A DNA stretch of 55,949 bases, the filler included, from Sphacelaria rigidula (Eukaryota), in NCBI GenBank assembly GCA_964200075.2. It is 4 parts of 4 records of this genome, joined end to end, with 100 filler letters (N's around TTAATTAATTAA, not from the genome) between each part and the next. Parts side by side here need not be neighbours in the genome. Positions count along the whole stretch, not along the records: positions 42,040 to 55,949 come from CAXNAA020002595.1; 3 more parts are not named here. One strand, 5' to 3'. The translations under genes and the position numbers were made by a program. Under the pieces are notes generated by a model. The model was given only the letters and a program-made list of their open reading frames with translations. It did not search any database and had not been told where the DNA came from. Shown here piece by piece: positions 7,899 to 55,949 of the stretch (its first letter is position 1; each line of letters starts with the position of its first letter).

Positions 7899-8146
7899 TA
7901 TAGCCTCTGCCAGACGATCTGGACAAGAGGGCAATTCAGTGAGGGGCTTCTCCAGAATCCACTGGTCTCACGCTCGATAAGAACTTCTCTCAGAGCTTCC
8001 ACTCACGAAGTAAGCAACAGCAGCCCATTGGCCACACATCAAAGGCTACACGGTAAGGGTCATCATCCACATTGTACCCTGTCACATAACCATCATCCAG
8101 TGTCCTACACGTTAAACGCAACGGCTTGGCACCATTTTGGGCTACA
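7899..8146 (-). repeat. 5' LTR of Gypsy element (248 bp)
   Basis: Direct repeat of 2461-2680. Confidence 0.95.
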
Positions 8147-8342
8147 GAGCCAACTGTCATATATCACCGCACGAGGGACAAGTAACAGTGGATTCTCGAA
8201 AATAGGGATGAAAAATAAATGAGGTTCATCTCAAGAGCCGTGCTTTTCCTGACCTAAAATCATGACAAATGATTCTCATATGGACCACCCCATCCCTCCC
8301 GACCTCCCAAAAACTATTTCGGGGGATTTACAGCCTTCCATT

Positions 8343-41631: not shown

Positions 41632-41939
41632 GGCGAGCATGACATTTCTGACGAGCTTATAATGTGCTTTAAACGAGCATAAAGTTGCGATAAAGTTTTA
41701 TGCGCCGCCTCCAGCGATCGCAGCAGCTGTCTGAAAGTGCCCCTTGTGGCCTACAGCGTGACGAGTGATTCGTCACCCGTCACCAGACAGGCTTCAATAC
41801 TCCAAACTGCCACGGTTGCGGGTCTGATCCAGAAACGTTTAGCTGTATATTTCTTATGCGTGATACTTTCAGGGTTAGGACAAATCATCACGACTCAAAA
41901 TCACCAAATTCACGATTTCTTCGGCCTGATTGCCCGAAA

Positions 41940-42039: not shown

Positions 42040-42903
42040 GAGTACGCCCGCCACCCCCCCCCCCCTCCCCCTCCCCCCTCCCCCTTCCCCCTCCCCCCTC
42101 CCCTCCCATCCGTCCCGGAGGGCAATGTTTTGAAGATTGTCGTGATTTTTCCATTTTTTTGTTGAAATTGTTTACAGAAATTGATAAACAAACACTGACA
42201 AAAACCGAAGAGTCCGGCGGGCTTTGCGAGGTTCGTATGTTTGCTTTCGCTCCTTGCCCACCCTGTCCCGATGACCTCGGATGCCGGCGACTCTCACACA
42301 CATCCATGTACAACACACGCGCACGGTAGCGACAGCCGGTAGCCAAAGTGGCAACATTATCTCACGCCTCGCCAAATTTGCCCGGACAAGTGGTAGGTAG
42401 TCGAGGCACACGACACAGAACATGATACCATAAATTCAATCATGGAGGAGCGGTGTGTCCGTCATCTCAGCGGTCTCCATGCCAAGGATCTCTGTACATG
42501 GCAGCTGAACGCATCCGCCAACGCCTCGGCGATGAACTAGGGGACAGCAGGCTGGGTGCCCCCCCCCTCAAAAAGTCGAATTTTCGATCTTGGGGTCAGC
42601 CTACGTCTCCCGAATTGTTTTTGTCAGACCCTTCGTTGGTGAGTCCCTGTTTTTGTGGAATTACACCCCCCTTATCGTAGCAACTTTGTTCAACGCCCGC
42701 ACGAAAGAGGCCCTTGCCACGCGCATGGCACGTCACATACTCTTCGCGCATACTATTGCGTTAACTTTGAACACACCGGCCGTCACACCAACCAACCGTC
42801 AGAGGAAATCGTTGCGCAAGTGCGCCGTGGCCTATACACGCATGGAACACGCTAAAGCGATCTATTTCACAGTATAACGGAGTATTGACTCAGGGAAGAG
42901 TCA

Positions 42904-43576
42904 TGCTTCGGTAGGGGTGCACAAATATTTTCTGAGGTTAGAATTGTTTGGAGCCCTTCGTCTCATGCAAATAAACACGACCTATGGAAATATGTGAAAG
43001 CACGCCAGGATTACTACTCCAATGTGCTGGGGATATCCCGAATGAAATTGCAAACGGGGATGCGCTGACGCATATTTTTGTGCATCTAGAATCGTTAGGA
43101 GCCCCTGAACTAGACATTATTTCGCGAAAAAAGTGCACCCCTACGGTAGCATTGCTCAGAAAAAGTGTGCAACTACCTCCGCCGAACCACGAGCTGGGCC
43201 AGCCCAAGAACGGATTTAAGCTCTCACACCAATATCTCATCGATTAAGAAGACGAATTGGGCTGAGATCCGCACATCTTGTTGAATGCTCAATGAAGGGG
43301 CAGATGCCGAGTGGTGCTACGGTAGGAGTGTACAAATATTTTCTGAGGTGAGACTTAATTGCCAGGAGCCCTGTATCTCATCCTCAACACCAGTTATGAA
43401 AATATTATGTGGAGTACGCCCGGAGTACTGTACCATTCCAATGTGCTGGGGATATCCCGAATGAAGTTGCAAACGGGTATGTCCTGACCCATTTACTTGC
43501 GCATCATGAATCGTTAGGAGCCCCTGAACCAGACAAAATTTCGCGCAAAATGTGCACCCCTACCGTAGCATTGCTC
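42904..43576. mobile_element. Two copies (42904-43157, 43315-43576) of a ~250-bp MITE-like element with TGCTACGGTAGGGGTGCAC inverted ends
   Basis: Inverted ends and shared internal CAATGTGCTGGGGATATCCCGAATGAA; further copies at 55482 and 55881. Confidence 0.8.
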
Positions 43577-43579
43577 TGC

Positions 43580-45590
43580 CCGTCTGCTCTACAACCTGGG
43601 GATTATTTCGTCGTTGGCTCAACGCCTTGTCACGTAAATCCTGTCACGTGCGGAAATATGGTGCATATCAAAGTCTGCACGGAACTCCGAACGATATGTA
43701 TAGCGGATGACATGATTTTTGGTGTGAACATTTCCTGGAGCACTGGAGTACGTGGAAAAGATGTATAGTCTCACCTCTACTTGACCTGTCATTCATCTGA
43801 GTATATGGTGCCAATAATATTCGGCACTAATTTCAATATATTACGAGCAGGGGCACGACATGCACTAATAATCTGGGGTTCTCGCCGCACTCTTGCACGC
43901 ATCGAACAACGAACCCATCATAAGTTGTGTGAATATTACTTCTTTACTAGCGTGTACTGAATCGGATCATGAGCTAGTTCATTCGTTCACTTCCCCCGTG
44001 TGCTCCCCGCCTACAACGCTGTATTATGGATATTTTGGTTGATACCCTTGCCGCATCAATCAGCAGCAGTTGCCCCGCATACGTTACATTCCAACAGATA
44101 CATGCGATCCACGATACACACAAGAGTAGTGCTACTAACATTGACTAGTACTGGACATGCACCAACATTTCCATAACACGCTGGACACCGAGAACGCGGA
44201 GTAGCGCAAAGGTGGAACCTGGACTGCTCGGACCCTGCTTTCGCGTATTCATTCAGTATTTGGACACGGGATCTGAGAGTCCTCTCCGATTCGTCAGTGA
44301 TTTGAGATGCTATTAGCAATTCGATGAACTAGGCGCTGAAATTTTGATAATGTGATTTTCATCATCGACTCGCGCAACATTATTTGGGGGTACAGAGGAT
44401 TAACGGGGGATGATAAAAAATTGTTTCAGCTCCGCAGTGATATTTACTTGTAAGTTCACAACGTTTCCGTGGGAAGTTTACTCTCTCTTGGCCCTCAACT
44501 TGGTGTCTCCGACTTTCTTGTGGAGCTGCCTTCAAATTTTAGTGTGGGGAATCTCAAGGGTATCAAAGAAGATAAAACCGGGTTGTCTGTGATTCCGTTC
44601 TCACGAGTCGACAATATCCTCGTGAAGAAGTCATCTTTGTTATGTTAGAACGTACTTCATTCCAGACAAGACATGACGCCACAGATTTTGTTGCACTTGT
44701 CCTTGCGACTCTCCACATTGGTTTGGAAGCACAAGTGCCCACACGTGGGACGGATGATCGGTTTGTCCATTGCTTTTCCCTAGTACCCTGATCCGCACCG
44801 TTTGACCCCCCCTCTACACCGCGGTATGCCGAACACGCATAGCGCAAAGATTGCGCTTTGAATTCTCCAATTCCGGTCACACATCTCATGTTTTTGGACC
44901 AGCGGATTCATTAGTTATTCCAGGATTATCATCGTGTGTTCGGCGCGTGCAGTCGGGTGTCAAAACTGGGCTGGTGAATAGTTTACGAACTCCAGGGATC
45001 TCATCTCAGTTCCGAGGATTGCAACTCGCAGTTCAATATGGAGAATCGATGGAGGTTTAGAGAGGACGTAATTCCCCACCAAAGTCCTTGTCCACGATCG
45101 ATCGGGTACATCATCTCAAAAACTGGATATTTCCGTGTCCTAGACTCGTGGAAAACCATGCATCAGTGCAGGAAATCTGCCTTCCGTGTTTCAACTCGAC
45201 GAGTTCTTCACCACTTCAATTGCAAATCTCGAAATAGAAGTGAGAAACATACTCCGACGTCAAGATCCGCTCGTAGCGACGGAAGTTTTGCTACTGCAGG
45301 CTCTTCGACTGAAACTTCGAGTGCTGCCTGCGCAGCTCGCTCCCCCCGCTGATCGTTCTTCTACTCTGAAGATAGTCCGAGCGCTCGCGCGACCGCCAGG
45401 TGACGAAAGCTCGGTAGCTTGGATCGATCAGCGTGCTCTGTCCAAGATCTTTGGTGTTTGCTGTTGCAGCAGCGTCGACTTGGTTCGGGCCAAACCACCA
45501 GAACTGAACCGCGAACGGTGCAGGTGTGAAGGGCTGGACTTGGATTGGAGGGCCATGACCAAGACCCTTCCGTGAATCCAACGGGCTCGA
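43580..45590 (-). mobile_element. Possible very old retroelement remnant
   Basis: Coding-like but stop-riddled sequence with vestigial Cys/His knuckle near 44690-44720; no firm motif. Confidence 0.25.
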
Positions 45591-45775
45591 GATTGTCGGG
45601 GGGGGGGGGGGGGGGGGGGGGGAGGCGCGGGGGGGGTATAAGAAGGGGGGGGGGGGGGGGGGGGGGGGGTTTTTCCAAAAAGGTGGGGAGAGATGNNNNN
45701 NNNNNGGGGGGGGGGTGGGGGGGGGGGCGGGGGTGGTGGGGGGCGGAGCGCGCCCCCCGAGGTCGCGGGGTGGGT

Positions 45776-45820
<45 letters not shown>

Positions 45821-46667
45821 ATATAGACGCTCGAGGATATATCAAGGGATCAGGGTGTGTGGGGCAGGGTATTTTCAACATCGATGTGAAGAGTCGTAAT
45901 TTGATGACTAAAATTTTGGTCGAGTAGTCAAATTGAACTCAATTTATCCGAAATTCGGGTGGAGTAATAAAAGAGCCCCCAAGTGATACTCGTACTCGAT
46001 ATTCGCCGGGGTGGCGCTGAGAGTACTTCAATTTCTGGGTGGAGCGGTGAGGTCATACTTCACACCCGAGTGTTGCTGAAAGTATTTGCTCAATGTTTGA
46101 GTGGAGAACTGGTATCATACCGGACTCTACCGAATAGTTGGATAGACTTTTGGCATGATACACAGCTTCATCCACTGTTGGGGGAGAGCATTAAACCATA
46201 CTGTACTCGAACTCAACCCAATATTCGAGTAGAGTATTTTGGGTCGTACACGATCTGCCCGGGACTTGGGCAGAGTACATACTCAGAAACCATCCCCGGG
46301 TGCTGAAGAAAAGAGTGTATACCCCACTCCATACCGCCCTTGGAAGTACACGCCAAGAACAAAGTGAACGCGAGGGTATGTCGGTGTGCGCATCTCATCG
46401 CATCACAGTCAAGAGTACATCGAGTCACGAGTCTCAAGCCAGTTTGATTGCATCACTACAGAGGCATCAGAGCATCTGCTTCAATCAGCACACAGTAGAA
46501 TCGCCCAGCCCACTACGAGTCCTACAGGTACAATACTGCAGGATCCCAGTGCACTAGCGGTGGGGGCAAGTATGGAGTGAGATGCCAGGCGCATAATGCA
46601 CCCCCAAACTAGCAGATCACTCTACCCCGCCGTTCCCGACTACATGCTAAAACAAAACACATGGGGT

Positions 46668-49600
46668 TTAATCGTCTCCGCGAACTACCGCGCCGGCGAT
46701 ACGGTCCAGATCCTGTTGGCCCACGCGAGTTACCTGCCGTCCCCCGTTCTCCATCTTTTCCACTACCTGTGGGTGTTGATCCCGTAGCGAAGACACGTAG
46801 AAACGCAGGAGGCGTGGCGAAGCGGGGAGGGGGGGGGGGTAGTTTCAACCAATTGAGTGCCAAATGCCGTTGATATGGTCTCATGTACTACTGGTCGTTT
46901 AGTGAACGTACACGATAATAGGATCGGACACCACGGATTTCACTCCTCACGACTGTACGTCGCCTTTGAGGAGAGAGGGAAAAAACTTCAGCCAGAGTCG
47001 GATATATTTTCATGCATGAAGATGGATGGCGGGAGCCATATGTTCAATCAGCACACATTCCTCTCGTGGTATAAGTGATCCATATGGACTACACTCGCGG
47101 TCTATGGGTCAAGATTAGTTCGTGACCTTGCTCACGAAGGCGGTGTAGAAGCTTGGGGGTTGGGAGCAATTTATAAGAACCTCGAGATGAGAGTAGGCAA
47201 CTGTTGACCAGCAGCGCACCGAGTCGCGACGACAGTTGGAAGATTACACGGTTAGGACAAATCATCATGACTGAAAATCACCAAATTCACGATTTCTTCG
47301 GCCTGATTACTCAAAAGGGAGAAAAAAGTTGATCGCTGGTCCGAGGTGTATCCACGCAGCTTTTGCGCCATACCACGTGTCTGGGGTGCGTCTACCTGGG
47401 TTACAACGCTGAATTAAAGCCTGGGGATTGATTCGTCACGAGTCGACTCATCATACCAGAACCGAGTAATTCTCAGACGAATCATTGTTTGTTTGACCCT
47501 TGGAAGATTACAAGCGACACACGGCGACTCATGGTTGTGGGCATGCAGTCAATGATTCCGCACTATGGCGTCAACAAGGTGTCAACGGCAGCATGGGTGA
47601 TTCTCGACTCTGGTCATCATCCCACCCGCTGGAAATTTCATTCGTGATGACTAATTTCGGATCACAAGTAGGTCCAAGTAACACGAATTGATGACAGTCA
47701 CGATTACAATAGGAAGAGCAGGCAGTCACCGTTACAAGTAATCGGCGTTTGGAAAAAGCCAACATCCAACATCGTTAGTTTACGCGACGCTTCCGACGAC
47801 ACTCAGAATGAGTAGGAGGTTATTGTTTCATAATCATTTCATGAGTCATACACCAGAAACTTCATCACAGCATAGTCGGAAGTGACGAGACCCACATTCG
47901 CATACCTAGCGTAAGCATACATTCACCAGATTTGGTCTCCACAGAGCATTATTTCGCGCTGAAAACGGTTTTTTGCAACAGAAACTAACGAATTCAATGT
48001 GAACAGTGATTTTCACGATCATGTATCAACAAAAAAACAGATTACAAGTTTGCACTACGGTTCCGAAGACGCTCAGAATGAGTAGGAGGTTCTTGTTTCA
48101 TAATCCTTTCATAGATCATACACCAGAAACTTCATCACAGCATAGTCGGAAGTGACGAGACCCACATTCGCATACCTAGCGTAAGCATAACTTCACCGGA
48201 TTTTTTCTCTACAAAGCATGATTTCGCGTTGGAAACGCTTTTTTGCAACAGAAACTAACGAAATCAATGTGAACAGTGATCTTCACGATCATGCATCAAC
48301 AAAAAAACTGATGACAAGTTTGCACTACGGTTCCGAAGACGCTCAGGATGAGTAGGAGGTTCTTGTTTCATAATCCTTTCATAGATCATACACCAGAAAC
48401 TTCGTCACAGCATGGTCAGAAATAACGAGAGACACCCGCATGTCATACTTGGTGCTACTCTTTGACAGGCCTAGGTCAGGAGAAATTGTACCCGTCATTA
48501 CTTATTTCGGTAGAAAAAGTACGTCTGCGTAACAGGATGTGATAACAATTCATGTCACAATAACACCAGCACTGTGTGGGCAGCAAGTTTTACAACCATT
48601 CGACACTGGGAAAAAGTCAACATCTAACATCGTCAGTTAGAGAAACGCTTCCTTTGACGATCAGAATGAGTAGGAGTCACCTGTTTTGCAATCCCATGTG
48701 ATCCAAGAGAAGACCTCATCGCAGCATAGTCGAGAGTGACAACACTTACATTTGCCATGCCCGGTGCGAGTCCAATCTCCCCGAAAGCTTTCTCCGCAAA
48801 CCATGATTTTGCGCCGAATACGCTCGTTTGTAACACTAACGTATCATCATGAAACAGTGCGATAAGTGACCTTCACAACCGTGCGACATGAGAAAAAATA
48901 AACAGATGACGAGTTTGCAATGCGCTTCCGACGACGCTCAGAATGAGTAGGAGGTTCTTGTTTCATAATCCTTTCATAGATCATACAACAGAAACTTCAT
49001 CACAGCATAGTCGAAAGTGATGGAAAACAATCGCACAAGTCATACTTGGTGCTCCTCCCTTACAGGCCTACTGTCGGGCCAAATGGCTCGCAACCGCCAA
49101 GTCCAGCAAAACTGGTGCGGAACCGCACTTGTCCAACTGGCTCGCCAGGACACCGCATCAACATGACATAATTTGCAGGGACCCCTACACACAGCGACGC
49201 ACTCACGCCACAGTAACTTTCCGAAATCGCTTGGAATGGGTTGAGGATTCTCGCTCGATGGTCCCCTGATGGACATCGATGCACCCACAAACTCCTTCAT
49301 AGCAAAACTTGTTTCGCATGTACAACAGAGCTCACCATTCGCCAGCAAGATCCAACACGACCCACGTGGAAAAGACCAAACCGACGACGAATGAGACGAC
49401 CGTACTCATTCCATCAGTATACCGTGCACGATTTCATTGCACCATGGTGACGTCTTCAGAAGCGCTCGGGATGAGCATGAGAAGAAAATACTTCAATGAT
49501 CCTTTCATGTCATACAAGAAGGAATGTTGTCCCAGCGCTGTGGAATAACTCGAGTTGACGTGTCCTAGACCATGTATATGTAGTTTTATATTCTGACGGG

Positions 49601-52600
49601 TGATATTTTCAATCCACCCTCCAAAACATCGAACCCAGAAAAAGATCTACTCGCCGTGTGCACTCGTCGGCAGATCCAGGACAAATAGACAACCCTACCC
49701 GTAGGTGACGTTCGAAGGAACTGTTACAGGTGAAGGCGTAGCTGTGCCAAGTCATCTCAAAATCAAGTTGAAATGAATGAAGGTTCATATTTCGCTTTTT
49801 TTTTTTCCAAATCATAAAAACAAAACATCACAGGACCACACGAAGAGAGAAAGTGAAGTAGACACGTCACCGAAAAATAACATGCATCCGGCCACCAACG
49901 CAAACACAGGACACAACTATTCGGGGGGGGGCGTACTCATTTGTTGCTTGCCTTGGTCGTGTGACCAGTGACAACTATTTGGGGGTGCACAGCGACAAAT
50001 TATAAGGTTCCGCCTTACAGCCGGCCAAAGAGGGTGCTCAGAATGAGTAGGAGGTTCTTATTTCTTAATCCTTTGGAGGTCATAGAAAACAGAACTTCAT
50101 CACTGCACCTCTATCGGCCGAAGTTCCCGCTCACACCTTGGCAGTGAAGTTTACAGGCTAGGAGTTCCATGCCCTCATGTTTTCGACACGGGCATTTCAA
50201 TCAATCGCTGAAATGAGGGATACCTCGGAACCCAGCACCACTGCAGTTTCCACTATGAGCGCAACACTATATCGAACAATCTTCACGACCCCAGTAAAAG
50301 TGGTCTTTCGATAGAGCAGTCACCGTCGCGCGATCGGACGGAAGGATATATACCACACAGAACCGAAGACCCGATCATCACCGACGGAAACCTATCACTA
50401 CAGTACCAGCACCGAAAAACATACCTTGAGCGACTCAAGCTGTTGGAGTACATGACGGATGATGCCGGTGGCCGCCGGCTTGTGGGTGTTGGTCATAGTC
50501 CCCCTGCGTGCCTTGGTGCCGAACGCCTTGCTCAATCCACCAACGCCGCGCCCCGGACGCAAGTACACCTTCCGCGCGATCGCCGCTGGACGGCAACAAA
50601 AACACGGAAAAAAATCGAAGTTGACGGTTGCTCTCAGAGACTCAAAGATGCGCTCTCACGACAAGGAGAGAAGATCAACGCTTCGAGTGGGAGGGCGTCT
50701 TTTTTTGTCCTGTATGCTCCCCTCCCCCGTGTTTTTTTTCCTCGGTGAATACTTGACCATGCGAAATGTAGATACTTCGGACGATTGCGGACTACGTTTT
50801 TTTACGAGAAGATCTGCCACGAGTCCCAACTATTCCGCGAAACATGGAGATAGGGTGAATGAGGGAACACTACAGCAGGACCCTCGGGCACAGTGACGCT
50901 TTTGCTCATGCTCAACCAACCATTAGACGACGAGCGTCGCCTCGGAACAGTTGTACATACTGACAGTCCAAAGACATCCGAGGTTTCCAAAGCTCGGACG
51001 GAAGGGGGGTGTCTTTCCGCGGAGCATCGGAGCTCACCGAGTCTAGGATGTGTGTTTGGGAGTTTCTCGCGGAGAATCATGAGCCGTGCCCGAGGCCCGA
51101 GAGGCGAGGGATGCCCATTCCTAGCAATCTCGGTCCTCGAAATGAGCACCCAAGTCCTGTTAGAGATGGACAGCTGGTAGACACCTTGACCGTCTACTCT
51201 CGAGTCTCCCTTTACTCATGTCATACATGAGCCACAGATTTCATCACCAAAAAACAGGTGTTCAAGCATCTTTGTTACACTGTCTGTTCAGTACTGCCTG
51301 AGCGTCCTACTAGCTTCACGGCTCCATCTGGTGCAAAACGTCGTGGCGCGGCACGGGGGCGGCGCGCACGAGTATCCTATGCACGTAGATGTAGGCGAGT
51401 ACTTCGACAGCGAGGCGACCGCCATCGACGAGCAATTGCTCCACGGTAGCCAGGGGCGTTCGCAGCGGTAAGTCATGGTGCGATATCCAAACGCTGTACT
51501 CGGCACGTTCAATACTGAAAGATCCAGTACGCTGCAGACCGTACTTGCAGCCGCGCCACGATCAACAACAGACTGCACGGCAAAAATATGCGGCGTAATG
51601 GTGGGGTGGTCGATAACCAAATCGCCGTCGTTGTTATGACTCTCACAACTATGTGCCTCTCATGCATCCCCGGTCCCTGCCGCAGTAGAGTAGGCGTTTT
51701 GGGCTGTGGCGAAGAAATGATTTCAAACTTCAAAAGTGGAGTGTCTACCTCAGTCTACATGCCGGCGGGGGACGCTGTCCAAGGGCCAACAATGAAATCA
51801 CAGCTTCGCAATATTTCCAACCAGCCGAGTTCGGGTTTTGTCTGAGTCTAGCGCGTGCTTGGGCAACGTTTATAATAAGCGTTTGTGCCCTGTACACGTT
51901 TCCATCTCGCTGGCTTTGCCGCTGACCAGCACAAAAGCGAGGTTGCGTACATGTCGGCGATTACACAAGAGCTACTTGTAAAGTGCGCAAACACCATGAG
52001 GAGATAGCACGAGCCGCATGCGTCGCGATTGCCCAGGGCTGCACTCTTTGGTACTCACAGAGGCCCTGCCGTTCCCGCCAAGACGGTTTTCAACCCCGAA
52101 AGGACGAAACATGAGGCTTACTGGTGTACAGGCGCGGGAGGAGCATTTCACAACTGCAATGCTACCTTCCGCAGTCACGATGTTGATAGTGTGTTGGTCA
52201 TCAAAACCCATCTCCGGCATTTCGGAAACGCTATGCAATGTGTCTCATGGATCACGATTTCCCCCTCCCCTCCACAGTTTTTACATGTTGACTACACGAT
52301 ATAGCGTATTTTCACAGCATCGAGGCAGCCACAGGTAGCACATTCAAGGCGTAAAACTGGCCTGCCGGCCGTGGTATTGCTGAGAATGATACAGCAAGGT
52401 GTGCTCGAAATATTTGGGGGAAACCACATCAGCAGCTTGCGCGTGAGACAACCGGTGATCGTGTTCACGATTCCTACGACGGCATTCCCACGTCACGTAC
52501 GATGCATATGCTCCGATTTCAAGAAAAGAGGCGATTTTACACATGAAAACACTTTGTCTCTTACCATCCACGGCTGCACCAGCGAAAGAATCACACGACG

Positions 52601-53119
52601 GAACAACGCGTCTACTCCGCGACCACTCGACAATCAAACTCGTGATATGATACGCCACATATCGTGAAAGGAAAAGGCAGTCACCGTCCCATAGTAAATT
52701 CATCTGCAAGCCCAGCGCATCGGTAGAGGGAGGGGGTGTTCTGCATCGTCACGCTGTCATGGGTCATTTCCTACGACCACACTGATTATTTTGTCGGGCT
52801 GAAACTCCCACGGGCAGATGAGCTCGGAGCAAAACCCTCAGCCACAACCAACCACAAACTGACGCGATCGTATGTCAAGATCAATGAAAACACAGTCCAA
52901 ACGCTCTAGAGCTAGGTACAATACATGCGTACCGGCACGGATGTAGTACCAGTCCTGATCGTACGGGCACATCTCCTTGTGGGGGGCCGTTTTGACGAGA
53001 TCGCACCAGGAGGGCAGCTCTACACGACCAGTGTTTTTGAGGTGCTCGGCGTACGCCTTGATGAAATCGGCCGCGGCGACATCGCGCACGGTGATGCCTC
53101 GGGGCTCGTAGTTCGCCAT
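46668..53119 (-). CDS. RPS19: 40S ribosomal protein S19 (eS19), 148 aa; coding exons 52933-53119, 50425-50585, 46668-46766
   Basis: [109 protein letters not shown] introns, phases 1 and 0, total 447 nt. Confidence 0.97.
47803..47868 (-). ncRNA. Box C/D snoRNA-like copy (array unit)
   Basis: GTGATGA...AACCTCCTACTCATT-CTGA; flanking stem CTTCCGAC/GTCGGAAG. Confidence 0.7.
48073..48138 (-). ncRNA. Box C/D snoRNA-like copy (array unit)
   Basis: Intact C box, guide and D box; 270 bp from the neighbouring copies. Confidence 0.72.
48343..48408 (-). ncRNA. Box C/D snoRNA-like copy with mutated C box (GTGACGA)
   Basis: Guide and CTGA retained. Confidence 0.55.
48661..48722 (-). ncRNA. Diverged box C/D snoRNA-like copy (C box GCGATGA)
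   Basis: Interior diverged but CTCCTACTCATT-CTGA retained. Confidence 0.5.
48938..49003 (-). ncRNA. Box C/D snoRNA-like copy (array unit)
   Basis: Intact C box, guide and D box, with flanking stem. Confidence 0.72.
49466..49535 (-). pseudogene. Decayed snoRNA-like copy
   Basis: Residual similarity (GCTCGGGATGAG..ATCCTTTCAT..CATAC); both boxes lost. Confidence 0.4.
50033..50109 (-). ncRNA. Box C/D snoRNA, candidate founder copy
   Basis: GGTGC-a-GTGATGA...AAGAACCTCCTACTCATT-CTGA-GCACC with a 5-bp terminal stem; host-sense, ~320 nt downstream of the exon donor at 50425. Confidence 0.8.
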
Positions 53120-53910
53120 GGTTGCCTGTTGTAGGGTACGATGAGGGTTTAAGATCAGTTGTGGTGTGTGTTATTGGACAGGACATTGTAGCCGGTAGAT
53201 AGAAGAAACTGCCGGGTGAAGCACTGTGGCCGGACATACCGTTGACAGCTGTAGCGCGCACACTACACCCTGTACTGACTGCAACTCCCCGTCACAGGAC
53301 CGTACTATACCATCGACACAATGCACTGTGTGAACAATCAGCGCAGACACCCGGGAAAAGTAATTTGTTTTGTTAACGGGTCAGGACCTCGTGCTGTACA
53401 CCGGCATTCCGGGCAGACTAGAGGCTGTCTGCAGCATCGCCTCGATCGAACAACTGGGAAGAGCACTCTTCATGTTATACCATAAATAGTGTGTACGTTT
53501 CACACCGCAGTGCTGCCAGTTTCATTACAGTACTTTACAGTACATTACAGTACGAATGTGAGCAATGGTGGCGAAACGGCCTCTCACCCAAGTACTAGCT
53601 ATCACGGCACATCAGACTGTGCATGCCTACTACAGAGCAGCTGAGAACGTGGGTTTCACAGTTGCAACACACCATGTGCTGCACAATATTTCCCGTGACC
53701 AATGCATCAGGCAAACATAGACCAACAACCCTGCTCTGTACCTCCGGCGTTCAGGTATGGACACAAATGGAGCACCATCAGCAGCACACATTCCCACACA
53801 AAGCTGCACCGATCTCATACTGAAACACGGAGTATAGTTCACGGTTCCCCAACGCAATCAAGTTCCCACTCATGCCACCGTCAACACTCGTAGCAACATC
53901 CCTCGCTTAC

Positions 53911-53975
53911 CTGGCTGCTCCTGGACTCTGAGCTGGGCCACAACCAACCGCAAGCAACCACACCACGATTTCATA
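53911..53975 (-). other. RPS19: Probable non-coding first exon of RPS19 (intron ~53126-53910)
   Basis: CAG|GTAAGC donor at 53910; caacAG acceptor 6 nt upstream of the ATG; 5' limit approximate. Confidence 0.6.
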
Positions 53976-54618
53976 GATGAGGCGGTTTTTCATCAAGAGG
54001 GGATAGGGGATAGTTCCACTGCGGGTCCGAAAATGCATGCTAATATCAATGAAAAAAATGGTGGACATACGGGCCGCAGTGCCGCGGTGGCGTACGAAAC
54101 ACGATAACCAAGAGGCAACCCCGACACCGAATCGCTGCCTGCGCTGGAATCGTGTGTAAAGTCTTCAATCCTGTCTTGAGTGCTAGCGGGGTGTTCACAC
54201 GATAACCGATACATAAAATGCCAAAACTGCACAGCAGGCCTGTTACCGACAGTACAGCGAGGACGTGGTTCGCTTGATTTCTTGCCTCTGAGCACCACGC
54301 CCTCCCCACCCGACGGCAATGTATGCCTCTCACTTTGACATTGCTAAGAAGTTGATACATATTTCCTCCACGAGCAGAAATATTACACTGGAGGACTTCA
54401 AGATTTATTAGTTTAATGGCGTGAGCACAGGTGCTGGCCCCGCTGTTCGAGTGTGCCCAGCATCATGCGGGTTATATATGACGTCACCTTCGCGGACAGA
54501 CTGAAACTGGACGATATGAAAAGTGACAGGTTATGCCGCTATCACTTTGTCCACAGTTACAAATAGTAGGGGCCGCGCAGGAACGTGGGTTCGCGCACGC
54601 ATTTGTAGCGCTTGTGAA

Positions 54619-55026
54619 ATGAGCTTAACGTGCCAGCTTTGTGGGTACCAGGCCAAACGCAGGAATGCATCAGATCCAAGATGCCCGGTTTGCGATCAAC
54701 CTTACTCTGCAGGTGACCGACATAGCACTACGAGCTCGGGTCCGGGTCAATGGTCGGATCCTGTGCGGTCATCTGCCTGCCTAGCTGGAACAGGACGAGG
54801 TGTAGGTAGCGTGAACAGCGCGACAGAGGGTGCACTATCGCCTGGTGGTCTCAATCCGGAGCTTGAATCTTTGCTGCGTCGATTGCCTCAGAAACGTGAC
54901 ATGCAACGTCGGCAGGATGAGATTTTGCGAGCTGCCGCCGTGCCTACTGCAGAAAGTGTTCAACGGGAAGATGAGGATGTCGTGTACATTCGCCCTCGTG
55001 TTGACCCGACAATGCGAGTTCTGAAG
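54619..55026 (+). CDS. First exon of an unknown protein with an N-terminal CxxC-x13-CxxC zinc-ribbon-like motif
   Basis: ATG at 54619; MSLTCQLCG...RCPVCDQP; 408 nt ending at AAG|GTGAAT; a further strong donor AAG|GTAAGT at 55257. Confidence 0.6.
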
Positions 55027-55481
55027 GTGAATGGGGGCCGATCATTCCGACCTGAGGGGGGCACTTGCCATCATCAAGTATACTAGTGTAGCGATAGAAG
55101 GCTGCTGCACTGTTGTTGTGTGGATCAAACGTTGGCGCGCAAACGTAGAATCCATTATCAAAGCACAGTCGACGCGGGCGGTCACGTCAGTACCGCAACA
55201 GAAAAACGGACGGAGCGATACTTGTAGGAGGCGTCGAGGTTTGAAGCCCACGCCAAGGTAAGTGTCAATGGGGGAGATGTACAACGATGTCAATGATGAA
55301 GTGAAGAGTGCGTTTTTCGTGGGTATTTAGTACATTTACTTTGCTGCAAATACTGCTCACTGCATCGCTAGACATTTCCTACCTGCATCTACGGTCCAGC
55401 CGAAGTCTCGTAACTGTGAACCCAACTGAAAAAATACCAGAGCAGCTTTCCCTCACGCGCACAGCCCGTCGTATTCGGTCG

Positions 55482-55949
55482 TGCTACGGTAGGGGTGCAC
55501 GAATGTTTTCCAGGTTTGAATTTTTTGGAGCCCACAATCTGATCCAAAAACGACTAATGAAACATGTGAACCCGCACAATTAACATTTCAATGAGCTAGG
55601 AATATCCTGACCCATTTTCTTGTGTAGCTCTCAAGTTTAGGAGCCCCTGAATGAGAAAGATTTGGGCCCGAATGTGCAACCCCTACCGTAGCATGGCTAT
55701 TGACAATGTATCGACACGGCGCTCTCACAATACTGATTCGCTACAAATCCAGCCATTGCTACGAGATCCAATTGATGTGTCGAAGTTGAATGAGCAGAGA
55801 CGCCCCGAAAATGTCAAAGCGAAGGCAACACATGCCGCCGCGCCCCAGTTGTCTAACTGATCAAACTGACACCAGTTACGGAGCAATGTTACGGTAGGGG
55901 TGCACTCTTTTCGCGAAATTTTGTCTGGTTCAGGGGCTCCTAACGATTC
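55482..55949. mobile_element. Two further copies of the TGCTACGGTAGGGGTGCAC MITE (55482-55693; 55881-window end, inverted)
   Basis: Same termini and GGAGCCCCTGAA internal motif as 42904-43576. Confidence 0.78.

Follow-up and report, generated by a model that had tools for sequence, protein, structure and literature searches.

The window analysed here, a 55,949-base stretch from Sphacelaria rigidula (assembly GCA_964200075.2) made of four parts joined with filler, contains a gene for the ribosomal protein RPS19 in the part that comes from CAXNAA020002595.1 (positions 42,040 to 55,949). The gene lies on the minus strand, and one of its introns holds a tandem array of ~66-nt units with the layout of box C/D small nucleolar RNA (snoRNA) genes (Table 1). 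Three open reading frame (ORF) pieces match Pfam Ribosomal_S19e; the match of the last exon alone is below the curated cut-off, and the reading frame closes at 148 amino acids. Logan contigs of four public runs were aligned to positions 46600-53250, two of the runs (X4 and X7) being spliced cDNA and two (X1 and X6) DNA. One joint, 46763|50422, spans a gap of 3,658 nt whose ends, once a 3-base ambiguity is resolved (“cut +3”), are CT..AC on the plus strand; it was seen in two contigs of X4 and one contig of X7, and in neither DNA run. A second joint, 50585|52933, skips 2,347 nt, is likewise CT..AC on the plus strand and is also absent from X1 and X6. Because of these spliced joints in X4 and X7, the array-bearing intron can be placed at 46767-50424, with GT..AG ends on the minus strand. 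Unit and Rfam scans of the other, 2,347-nt intron found no units and no Rfam matches; contigs of X4 and X7 leave some bins of it uncovered, to which no meaning is attached.

The spliced RPS19 coding sequence encodes 148 residues, of which 143 are identical in protein P0003 and 135, over the full length, in a protein (P0005) of the brown alga Choristocarpus tenellus. Among named relatives of the exon-1 peptide, this brown alga (92% identity) comes closest, followed by Parmales, an oomycete and diatoms. An earlier note on this DNA, made from the sequence alone, had set the array against the animal pattern of one snoRNA per intron; with an RPS19 protein closest, among named relatives, to that of C. 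tenellus this premise does not apply and, because the organism is a brown alga and not an animal, several snoRNAs in one intron is an expected layout. At the other end of the gene, a contig of X7 leaves the genome at ~53126-53128 (loose end 53128), 9 nt upstream of the RPS19 ATG, which indicates an additional intron in the 5′ untranslated region (UTR) at ~53128; the upstream exon was not located.

The array is made up of six clear units, each named here for its D-box end (50038, 48938, 48661, 48343, 48073 and 47803), and one decayed relic. A heptamer resembling box C stands at the start of each clear unit, and the guide followed by CTGA stands at its end. Every unit lies on the RPS19 strand inside the single intron, an arrangement that places the locus among intronic clusters, defined as at least two sense snoRNA genes in one intron. 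The distance from the 5′ splice site to the first unit is 321 nt, and that from the last unit to the 3′ splice site 1,036 nt. The earlier note had described ~7 units, resembling a 270-bp satellite, on the host strand of one RPS19 intron, and this description is confirmed, with corrections. Its seven coordinates and its D-box spacings (270, 270, 318 and 277, with 528 and 572 on the two sides of the relic at ~49466) were all recovered by box scan, repeat search and alignment, a 270-bp period is reported by Tandem Repeats Finder (Table 1), and the Pfam matches of the three exon pieces together with the spliced joints confirm the host. Six units are clear and the seventh (49466), already marked as decayed in the note, is a relic; the GTGATGA...CTGA core ascribed to the units is qualified: CTGA is present in six of six clear units and GTGATGA in four (50038, 48938, 48073 and 47803), with GTGACGA at 48343 and GCGATGA at 48661. 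A 39-nt guide segment repeats at spacings of 270, 270, 318 and 277 in the repeat search. An origin of the array by tandem amplification, as had been proposed, is supported. Candidates for boxes C′ and D′ are kept between units only in degenerate form (ATGA; GGATTATGA), and a second guide is not evident.

Table 1. RPS19 gene structure and snoRNA-like units on the analysed window (positions of the whole window; bit scores are for Rfam snoZ105)
Feature	Position	Strand	Description
RPS19 exon with ATG	52933..53128	minus	start codon 53119-53117; Pfam S19e E=9e-21; spliced joint 50585|52933 (X7)
RPS19 intron without snoRNA units	50586..52932	minus	2,347 nt, GT..AG; X7 contig joins 50585 to 52933
RPS19 middle coding exon	50425..50585	minus	Pfam S19e E=6.7e-16; joints on both sides
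Array host intron	46767..50424	minus	3,658 nt, GT..AG; joint 46763|50422
Unit u50038	50038..50103	minus	canonical GTGATGA ... guide AACCTCCTACTCATT ... CTGA; most diverged copy; 40.9 bits
Decayed relic	49466..49531	minus	lacks C box; D box CCGA; guide lost; found by alignment
Unit u48938	48938..49003	minus	canonical; 40.1 bits
Unit u48661	48661..48727	minus	damaged: C box is GCGATGA, distal guide now reads GTGACTCC, no external stem left; 19.3 bits, E=7
Unit u48343	48343..48408	minus	variant: C box GTGACGA, T>C beside box D; 30 bits
Unit u48073	48073..48138	minus	canonical; strict-scan match; external stem; 38.5 bits
Unit u47803	47803..47868	minus	canonical in assembly; guide C>G in strain X6; 41.4 bits
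Youngest part of array, 270-bp tandem repeat	47787..48430		Tandem Repeats Finder: 2.4 copies, 92% matches, score 1083; repeat families D1, D2 and D4
RPS19 last coding exon	46668..46766	minus	stop codon ends at 46668; Pfam S19e E=4.4e-05

A strict scan of both strands of the window for RTGATGA followed 49-144 nt on by CTGA, and for a terminal stem no shorter than 4 bp, gave five matches, four of which are array units; this result and the best Rfam family described below agree with the box C/D architecture read in the earlier note. The relic at 49466 is significantly similar to the units: its local alignment score over 49492-49517 is 30, whereas the best of 100 shuffles scored 21. Two further relics seen by eye at the expected period (~49231 and ~49785) scored 18 and 20, inside the shuffle range, and were dropped. 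The live units are likely to number only four or five, and u48343 may still be working. The sole other strict match in the window is a 131-nt sequence at 7936-8066 on the minus strand (GGATGATGA ... CTGA, with a 4-bp stem), which sits in a pair of duplicated segments (2461-2681 and 7899-8147, 5.4 kb apart and 92-96% identical) and has no Rfam match at E <= 0.05.

The cores of the copies are 81-98% identical to one another. Over the 66-nt core, u50038 is 81-85% identical to the other units, and over its flanks (150 nt upstream and 100 nt downstream) it is 50-54% identical to theirs, a flank identity that is at the random level (150-mers of the window give 0.49 +/- 0.025), in contrast to the conserved core. 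The cores of u48938 and u48073 are 98% identical and their flanks 55% and 67%. Fold predictions place an external stem of 11-15 bp around boxes C and D in five of the six units, namely the four canonical ones and u48343: the predicted stem is 7+8 bp in u50038, enclosing ~50022-50120, 8+5 bp in u48938, enclosing ~48924-49017, and 8+5 bp in u47803, and one of 6+5 bp is retained in u48343. The fold of u48661 has no enclosing stem (z = +1.16). Because the stem of u50038 is wholly unlike that of the other units in sequence and yet is predicted to pair, the pairing has been kept through compensatory change. Taken together, a shared guide, conservation specific to the core and compensated stems form the pattern predicted for a functional family of box C/D genes.

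When the region was searched with E-value thresholds, the best Rfam family for six of six units was the plant box C/D snoRNA snoZ105 (RF00145; scores in Table 1), with E = 0.0016-0.0067 for the four canonical units in a search of the whole window. The 3′ end of the units, ACCUCCUACUCAUUCUGA, is identical to the snoZ105 consensus, and the snoZ105 guide beside box D, ACCUCCUACUCAUU, is identical in four units, differs at one position in u48343 and is altered distally in u48661. In Table 1 of PMC3561390, a small RNA of Arabidopsis that goes under the name “snoR41Y” has this guide at its end. Since the 3′ end, ACCUCCUACUCAUU-CUGA, is identical in the units and in snoZ105/“snoR41Y”, the predicted target in large-subunit (LSU) rRNA would be common to them; the length of 66-72 nt and the combination of box C and terminal stem are also alike. 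The Rfam comparison, which the earlier note had left to be made, agrees in family and in 3′ guide and falls short in score: no window sequence matches at gathering thresholds, and the best unit reaches 41.4 bits against a snoZ105 cut-off of 45, whereas a plant copy found in a metagenome scores 60.8. The units further differ from snoZ105 in that the 5′ half and any D′ guide are not conserved, and the organism is a stramenopile and not a plant.

Relatives with the same guide were also found outside the assembly. At least 120 metagenome loci carry the exact 14-mer and, among the matches listed, about nine are C/D snoRNA relatives with this guide: the plant copy just mentioned, in a cluster of SNOR75, snoZ105 and SNORD18 (L004); a cluster of snoZ101-like, Z105-like and SNORD36 sequences (L008 and L035); and L016 and L028, L111, and L051, L100 and L118. 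The last three, on metagenome contigs, are related C/D-like RNAs with the same 14-nt guide and a box D of CCGA; box C of L100 and L118 is TGACGA, matching the u48343 variant. No relative's RPS19 was found among the fetched metagenome loci by tblastn, with one of the three exon queries in frame. In full-text literature searches with 12-mers of the guide, the “snoR41Y” entry was the only relevant match, the other eight appearing unrelated from their titles and abstracts.

The guide, 14-15 nt long and directly upstream of box D, is predicted to pair with the conserved LSU rRNA segment (A)AUGAGUAGGAGG. The earlier note had likened its complement to GAGUAGGAGG, and this motif is correct: it matches the eukaryotic LSU rRNA consensus, the Rfam LSU_rRNA_eukarya model reading acGAGUAGGagGgcG at positions 1377-1391, with a 10-nt guide match. 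The box D +5 rule fixes the nucleotide that is 2′-O-methylated. Counted upstream from box D, the fifth nucleotide of the guide is a U, which stands opposite the A of GA*GUAGG at Rfam model position 1380, so the predicted A of UGA*GUAG given in the earlier note agrees with the consensus; it agrees with LSU fragments as well. These fragments come from eukaryotic LSU rRNA loci obtained by scanning with the published primer LR7 (two of 11 loci on viral contigs, and 20 of the 20 tested from prokaryote assemblies, are LSU_rRNA_eukarya), and they are contaminants of unknown origin, not independent samples. The motif lies 66-72 nt upstream of the primer site in 42 of 66 LR7 loci, 11 of which have the exact 12-mer and 20 the 10-mer GAGTAGGAGG; LSU fragment L125 carries AUGAGUAGGAGG exactly.

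Relative to the C in AGAUC, the predicted A is 70 nt upstream, and the nucleotides at +12 and +13 are A and G. Table 1 of an Arabidopsis RiboMethSeq study lists Cm1447, Am1459, Gm1460 and Am1377 as mapped sites (PMC8583080); as tabulated there, Cm1447, Am1459 and Gm1460 match this A/G offset pattern, and Am1377 is 70 nt upstream of Cm1447. The target A (model position 1380) would then correspond to Arabidopsis 25S Am1377, whose row in that table is blank in other columns where neighbouring rows list human and yeast positions (PMC8583080). A further source, PMC8351944, yielded nothing on the predicted LSU site. From pairing and position, the guide most likely directs methylation of one conserved LSU rRNA adenosine.

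Taken together, these data make it probable, in our judgement, that the region is a tandemly amplified gene cluster for one box C/D snoRNA, lying sense within the 3.66-kb RPS19 intron. Guides of this class are stable RNAs of ~60-90 nt bound by fibrillarin, Nop56, Nop58 and Snu13; by the box D +5 rule, fibrillarin would here be guided to 2′-O-methylate the A of GA*GUAGG. The array itself would be subject to birth and death, with four canonical copies, one variant, one damaged copy and at least one relic, and duplication appears to be recent at its 3′ end, where the 270-bp units are 90-92% alike.

Several observations weigh against this reading. None of the units reaches the snoZ105 gathering cut-off. 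The guide pairing was scored against the LSU consensus and fragments of unknown eukaryotes only, and the 10-mer is altered in 22 of the 42 LSU fragments (for example to GAGTAGGCAGG). Among the matches listed for the exact 14-mer guide complement there is no rRNA, most of these matches being due to chance and many of them Shine-Dalgarno-like; because the listed loci lack rRNA, the exact 14-mer is not a common LSU sequence, and the inner 10-12 nt are the matching part. The link to Am1377 is drawn from spacing and not from Arabidopsis sequence, and the sources conflict over the snoRNA: PMC3561390 gives the guide to “snoR41Y”, while PMC8583080 (Tables 1-2) assigns Am1377 to AtsnoR7 and other targets to At41Y, and the accessible part of its supplement contains neither the guide nor snoR7. 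The sequencing runs are represented by Logan contigs, which are blind to RNA ends, strand and levels, and a mature ~70-nt RNA is unobserved. Finally, variation between strains does not spare the cores. X6, a DNA run labelled algae metagenome, holds a variant that diverges by ~1% and, over the pieces compared, is arranged alike. Its listed differences from the assembly number 26 in the array (2,320 nt), four of them within the six cores (396 nt), so that differences are not rarer in cores than in the array as a whole. Two of them (47816 and 47822) fall in u47803, one of whose changes is C>G in the guide; the cores of u50038 and u48938 are unchanged, and a change beside u50038 turns a G-C pair of the stem into G-U. 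Because core differences are as dense as those of the array, individual copies appear to be under weak constraint, not visibly stronger than that on the spacers over this short time, a pattern that fits redundancy among copies and speaks somewhat against every copy being needed.

The same density of differences speaks for an alternative in which only one copy, for example the old and isolated u50038, is working, and unequal crossing-over has built the 270-bp array as a neutral satellite of snoRNA pseudogenes that yields no stable RNA. One copy with a mutated guide in X6 and two or three visibly decaying copies agree with this alternative, and, given the youth of the three 3′ units, little can be read about selection from their intact boxes. 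It is harder to reconcile with u48938 and u48073, whose nearly identical cores within diverged flanks argue that at least two array lineages kept the core, and with the external stems, kept in five of six units, and we consider it unlikely.

Contigs of X4 lie on the unspliced intron at 46739-47303, 47429-47875, 47890-48073, 48374-48962, 48958-49951 and 49938-50451, and contigs of X7 likewise cover the unspliced intron across units, which shows that intron sequence is present in both spliced-cDNA libraries. Mammalian intronic C/D snoRNAs that are distant from the branch point use external stems for splicing-independent assembly. In the array, the units would be co-transcribed with RPS19, each small nucleolar ribonucleoprotein (snoRNP) would assemble on its own external stem of 11-15 bp, independently of the distance to the branch point, and the spacers would be cut endonucleolytically before exonuclease trimming. 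Because exonucleases working inward on a debranched lariat would free only the outermost units, spacer cuts would be required, and that endonucleolytic processing is needed here is a reasonable inference. The scheme follows plant polycistronic snoRNA precursors, for which endonucleolytic cleavage and then exonucleolytic trimming are proposed in the accessible text of PMC2875012.

Release from the RPS19 pre-mRNA would not be involved if the units were driven by intronic promoters of their own, as one polycistronic gene or unit by unit. According to the available part of PMC2875012, independent polycistronic units account for most snoRNA clusters in plants, and the intron RNA is here no more than the presumed precursor. 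We nevertheless find such promoters improbable, more so than an array of pseudogenes: the units share the orientation of their host, ribosomal-protein introns are classic snoRNA hosts, a promoter-like element was not identified, and contigs from the spliced-cDNA runs cover the whole intron and not the array alone.

Across the array, summed DNA depth in X1 is 65-118, compared with ~67 for the flanking single-copy baseline, and no further copies of the unit family were found elsewhere in the 56-kb window; the array is not a transposon or dispersed repeat, the outcome that the earlier note had named as fatal to its proposal. That the units are chance or transposon-derived repeats with box-like motifs and without snoRNA function is scarcely credible: the lack of Rfam matches at gathering score and the high-copy dispersed repeats of the same intron (47266-47487 and 49923-49972) are what can be said for it, but the units stand at single-copy depth where true dispersed repeats reach 10^5-10^6, the 18 nt at their 3′ end are those of a curated snoRNA family, their guide fits a conserved rRNA site and their stems covary.

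Of the two dispersed repeats in the intron, the one at 47266-47487 has an X1 depth of ~3.6e5, and 47244-47316, part of dispersed repeat 47244-47487, has a 90% copy at 41867-41939. The shorter one, at 49923-49972, has an X1 depth of ~9.6e5 (baseline ~67) and ends in a poly-C/G run ~65 nt downstream of u50038. Many loose contig ends converge beside it, on 49922-49926; joints at these positions were considered as deletions of the array and rejected, as their short sides measure 21-24 nt and come from the dispersed repeat and the poly-G run. Elsewhere in the window, long poly-G tracts at 45583-45870 flank a run of N (an assembly gap) and give rise to spurious poly-Gly and poly-Pro ORFs, and at 1715-1951 there is an inverted repeat with arms of 104 nt, 80% complementary and 29 nt apart, consisting partly of CCAT/GGAT-type short repeats and matching Rfam MIR7723 on either strand with scores of 61 and 52 bits, below the cut-off of 200.

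We tentatively offer a broader reading of the snoRNA cluster, as a possibility worth weighing rather than an expectation. The array would be a dosage-tuned “snoRNA satellite”, in which unequal crossing-over keeps gaining and losing copies, so that the number of working guides would differ between strains. The long external stem around each live unit would be the signal for snoRNP assembly and would let an RNase III-like endonuclease excise the unit from the single intron, at a distance from the branch point and independently of lariat trimming. The guide for the plant-type LSU methylation (Arabidopsis Am1377, for which no yeast or human counterpart is listed) would be common to land plants and stramenopiles.

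Intronic and polycistronic snoRNA clusters with isoforms are already established in plants and green algae, and because of this the general picture of snoRNA organisation is unchanged by the array. Studies of rice and of Chlamydomonas are also said, by their titles, to deal with intronic snoRNA gene clusters. In their accessible parts, PMC7671301 and PMC2875012 report polycistronic snoRNA clusters with duplication-derived isoforms in plants, Chlamydomonas and Euglena, and PMC2875012 includes an Arabidopsis intron with three snoR155 variants. Like the intronic clusters of plants and Chlamydomonas, so far as the available accounts describe them, the locus in S. rigidula has several snoRNA units in one spliceosomal intron of a protein-coding host, isoforms arising through local duplication, and spacers that would need to be cut for release; it differs in that the units are copies of one box C/D snoRNA, in a 270-bp periodic array with decaying members, in a brown-alga host. 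The independent polycistronic clusters of plants and Euglena likewise owe their isoforms to tandem multiplication, but in the available part of PMC7671301 they are mostly intergenic, with promoters of their own, whereas the array described here lies inside a proven spliced intron.

No experimental catalogue of snoRNA genes was found for brown algae in the literature, as far as its accessible text extends, and the snoRNA loci of Ectocarpus appear in the available part of PMC4513859 as CDseeker and ACAseeker predictions only. What is distinctive here is a homogeneous periodic array in a ribosomal-protein intron together with a visible birth-and-death series. The locus provides a brown-alga example in which the splice sites of the host gene are proven, the guide has a predicted rRNA target, and copies range from live through variant to dead; this graded series makes the birth-and-death evolution of snoRNA genes visible at a single locus. 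Should the target be confirmed, the range of the guide would come to include stramenopiles, the LSU methylation concerned having so far been mapped in Arabidopsis.

The mammalian SNORD115 and SNORD116 clusters also consist of one box C/D snoRNA repeated in tens of tandem copies. There, every copy occupies a separate intron of a repeated non-coding host, and the snoRNAs are orphans. In the S. rigidula array, by contrast, a single intron of a ribosomal-protein gene holds all copies, and the guide they carry is, by prediction, a canonical rRNA guide.

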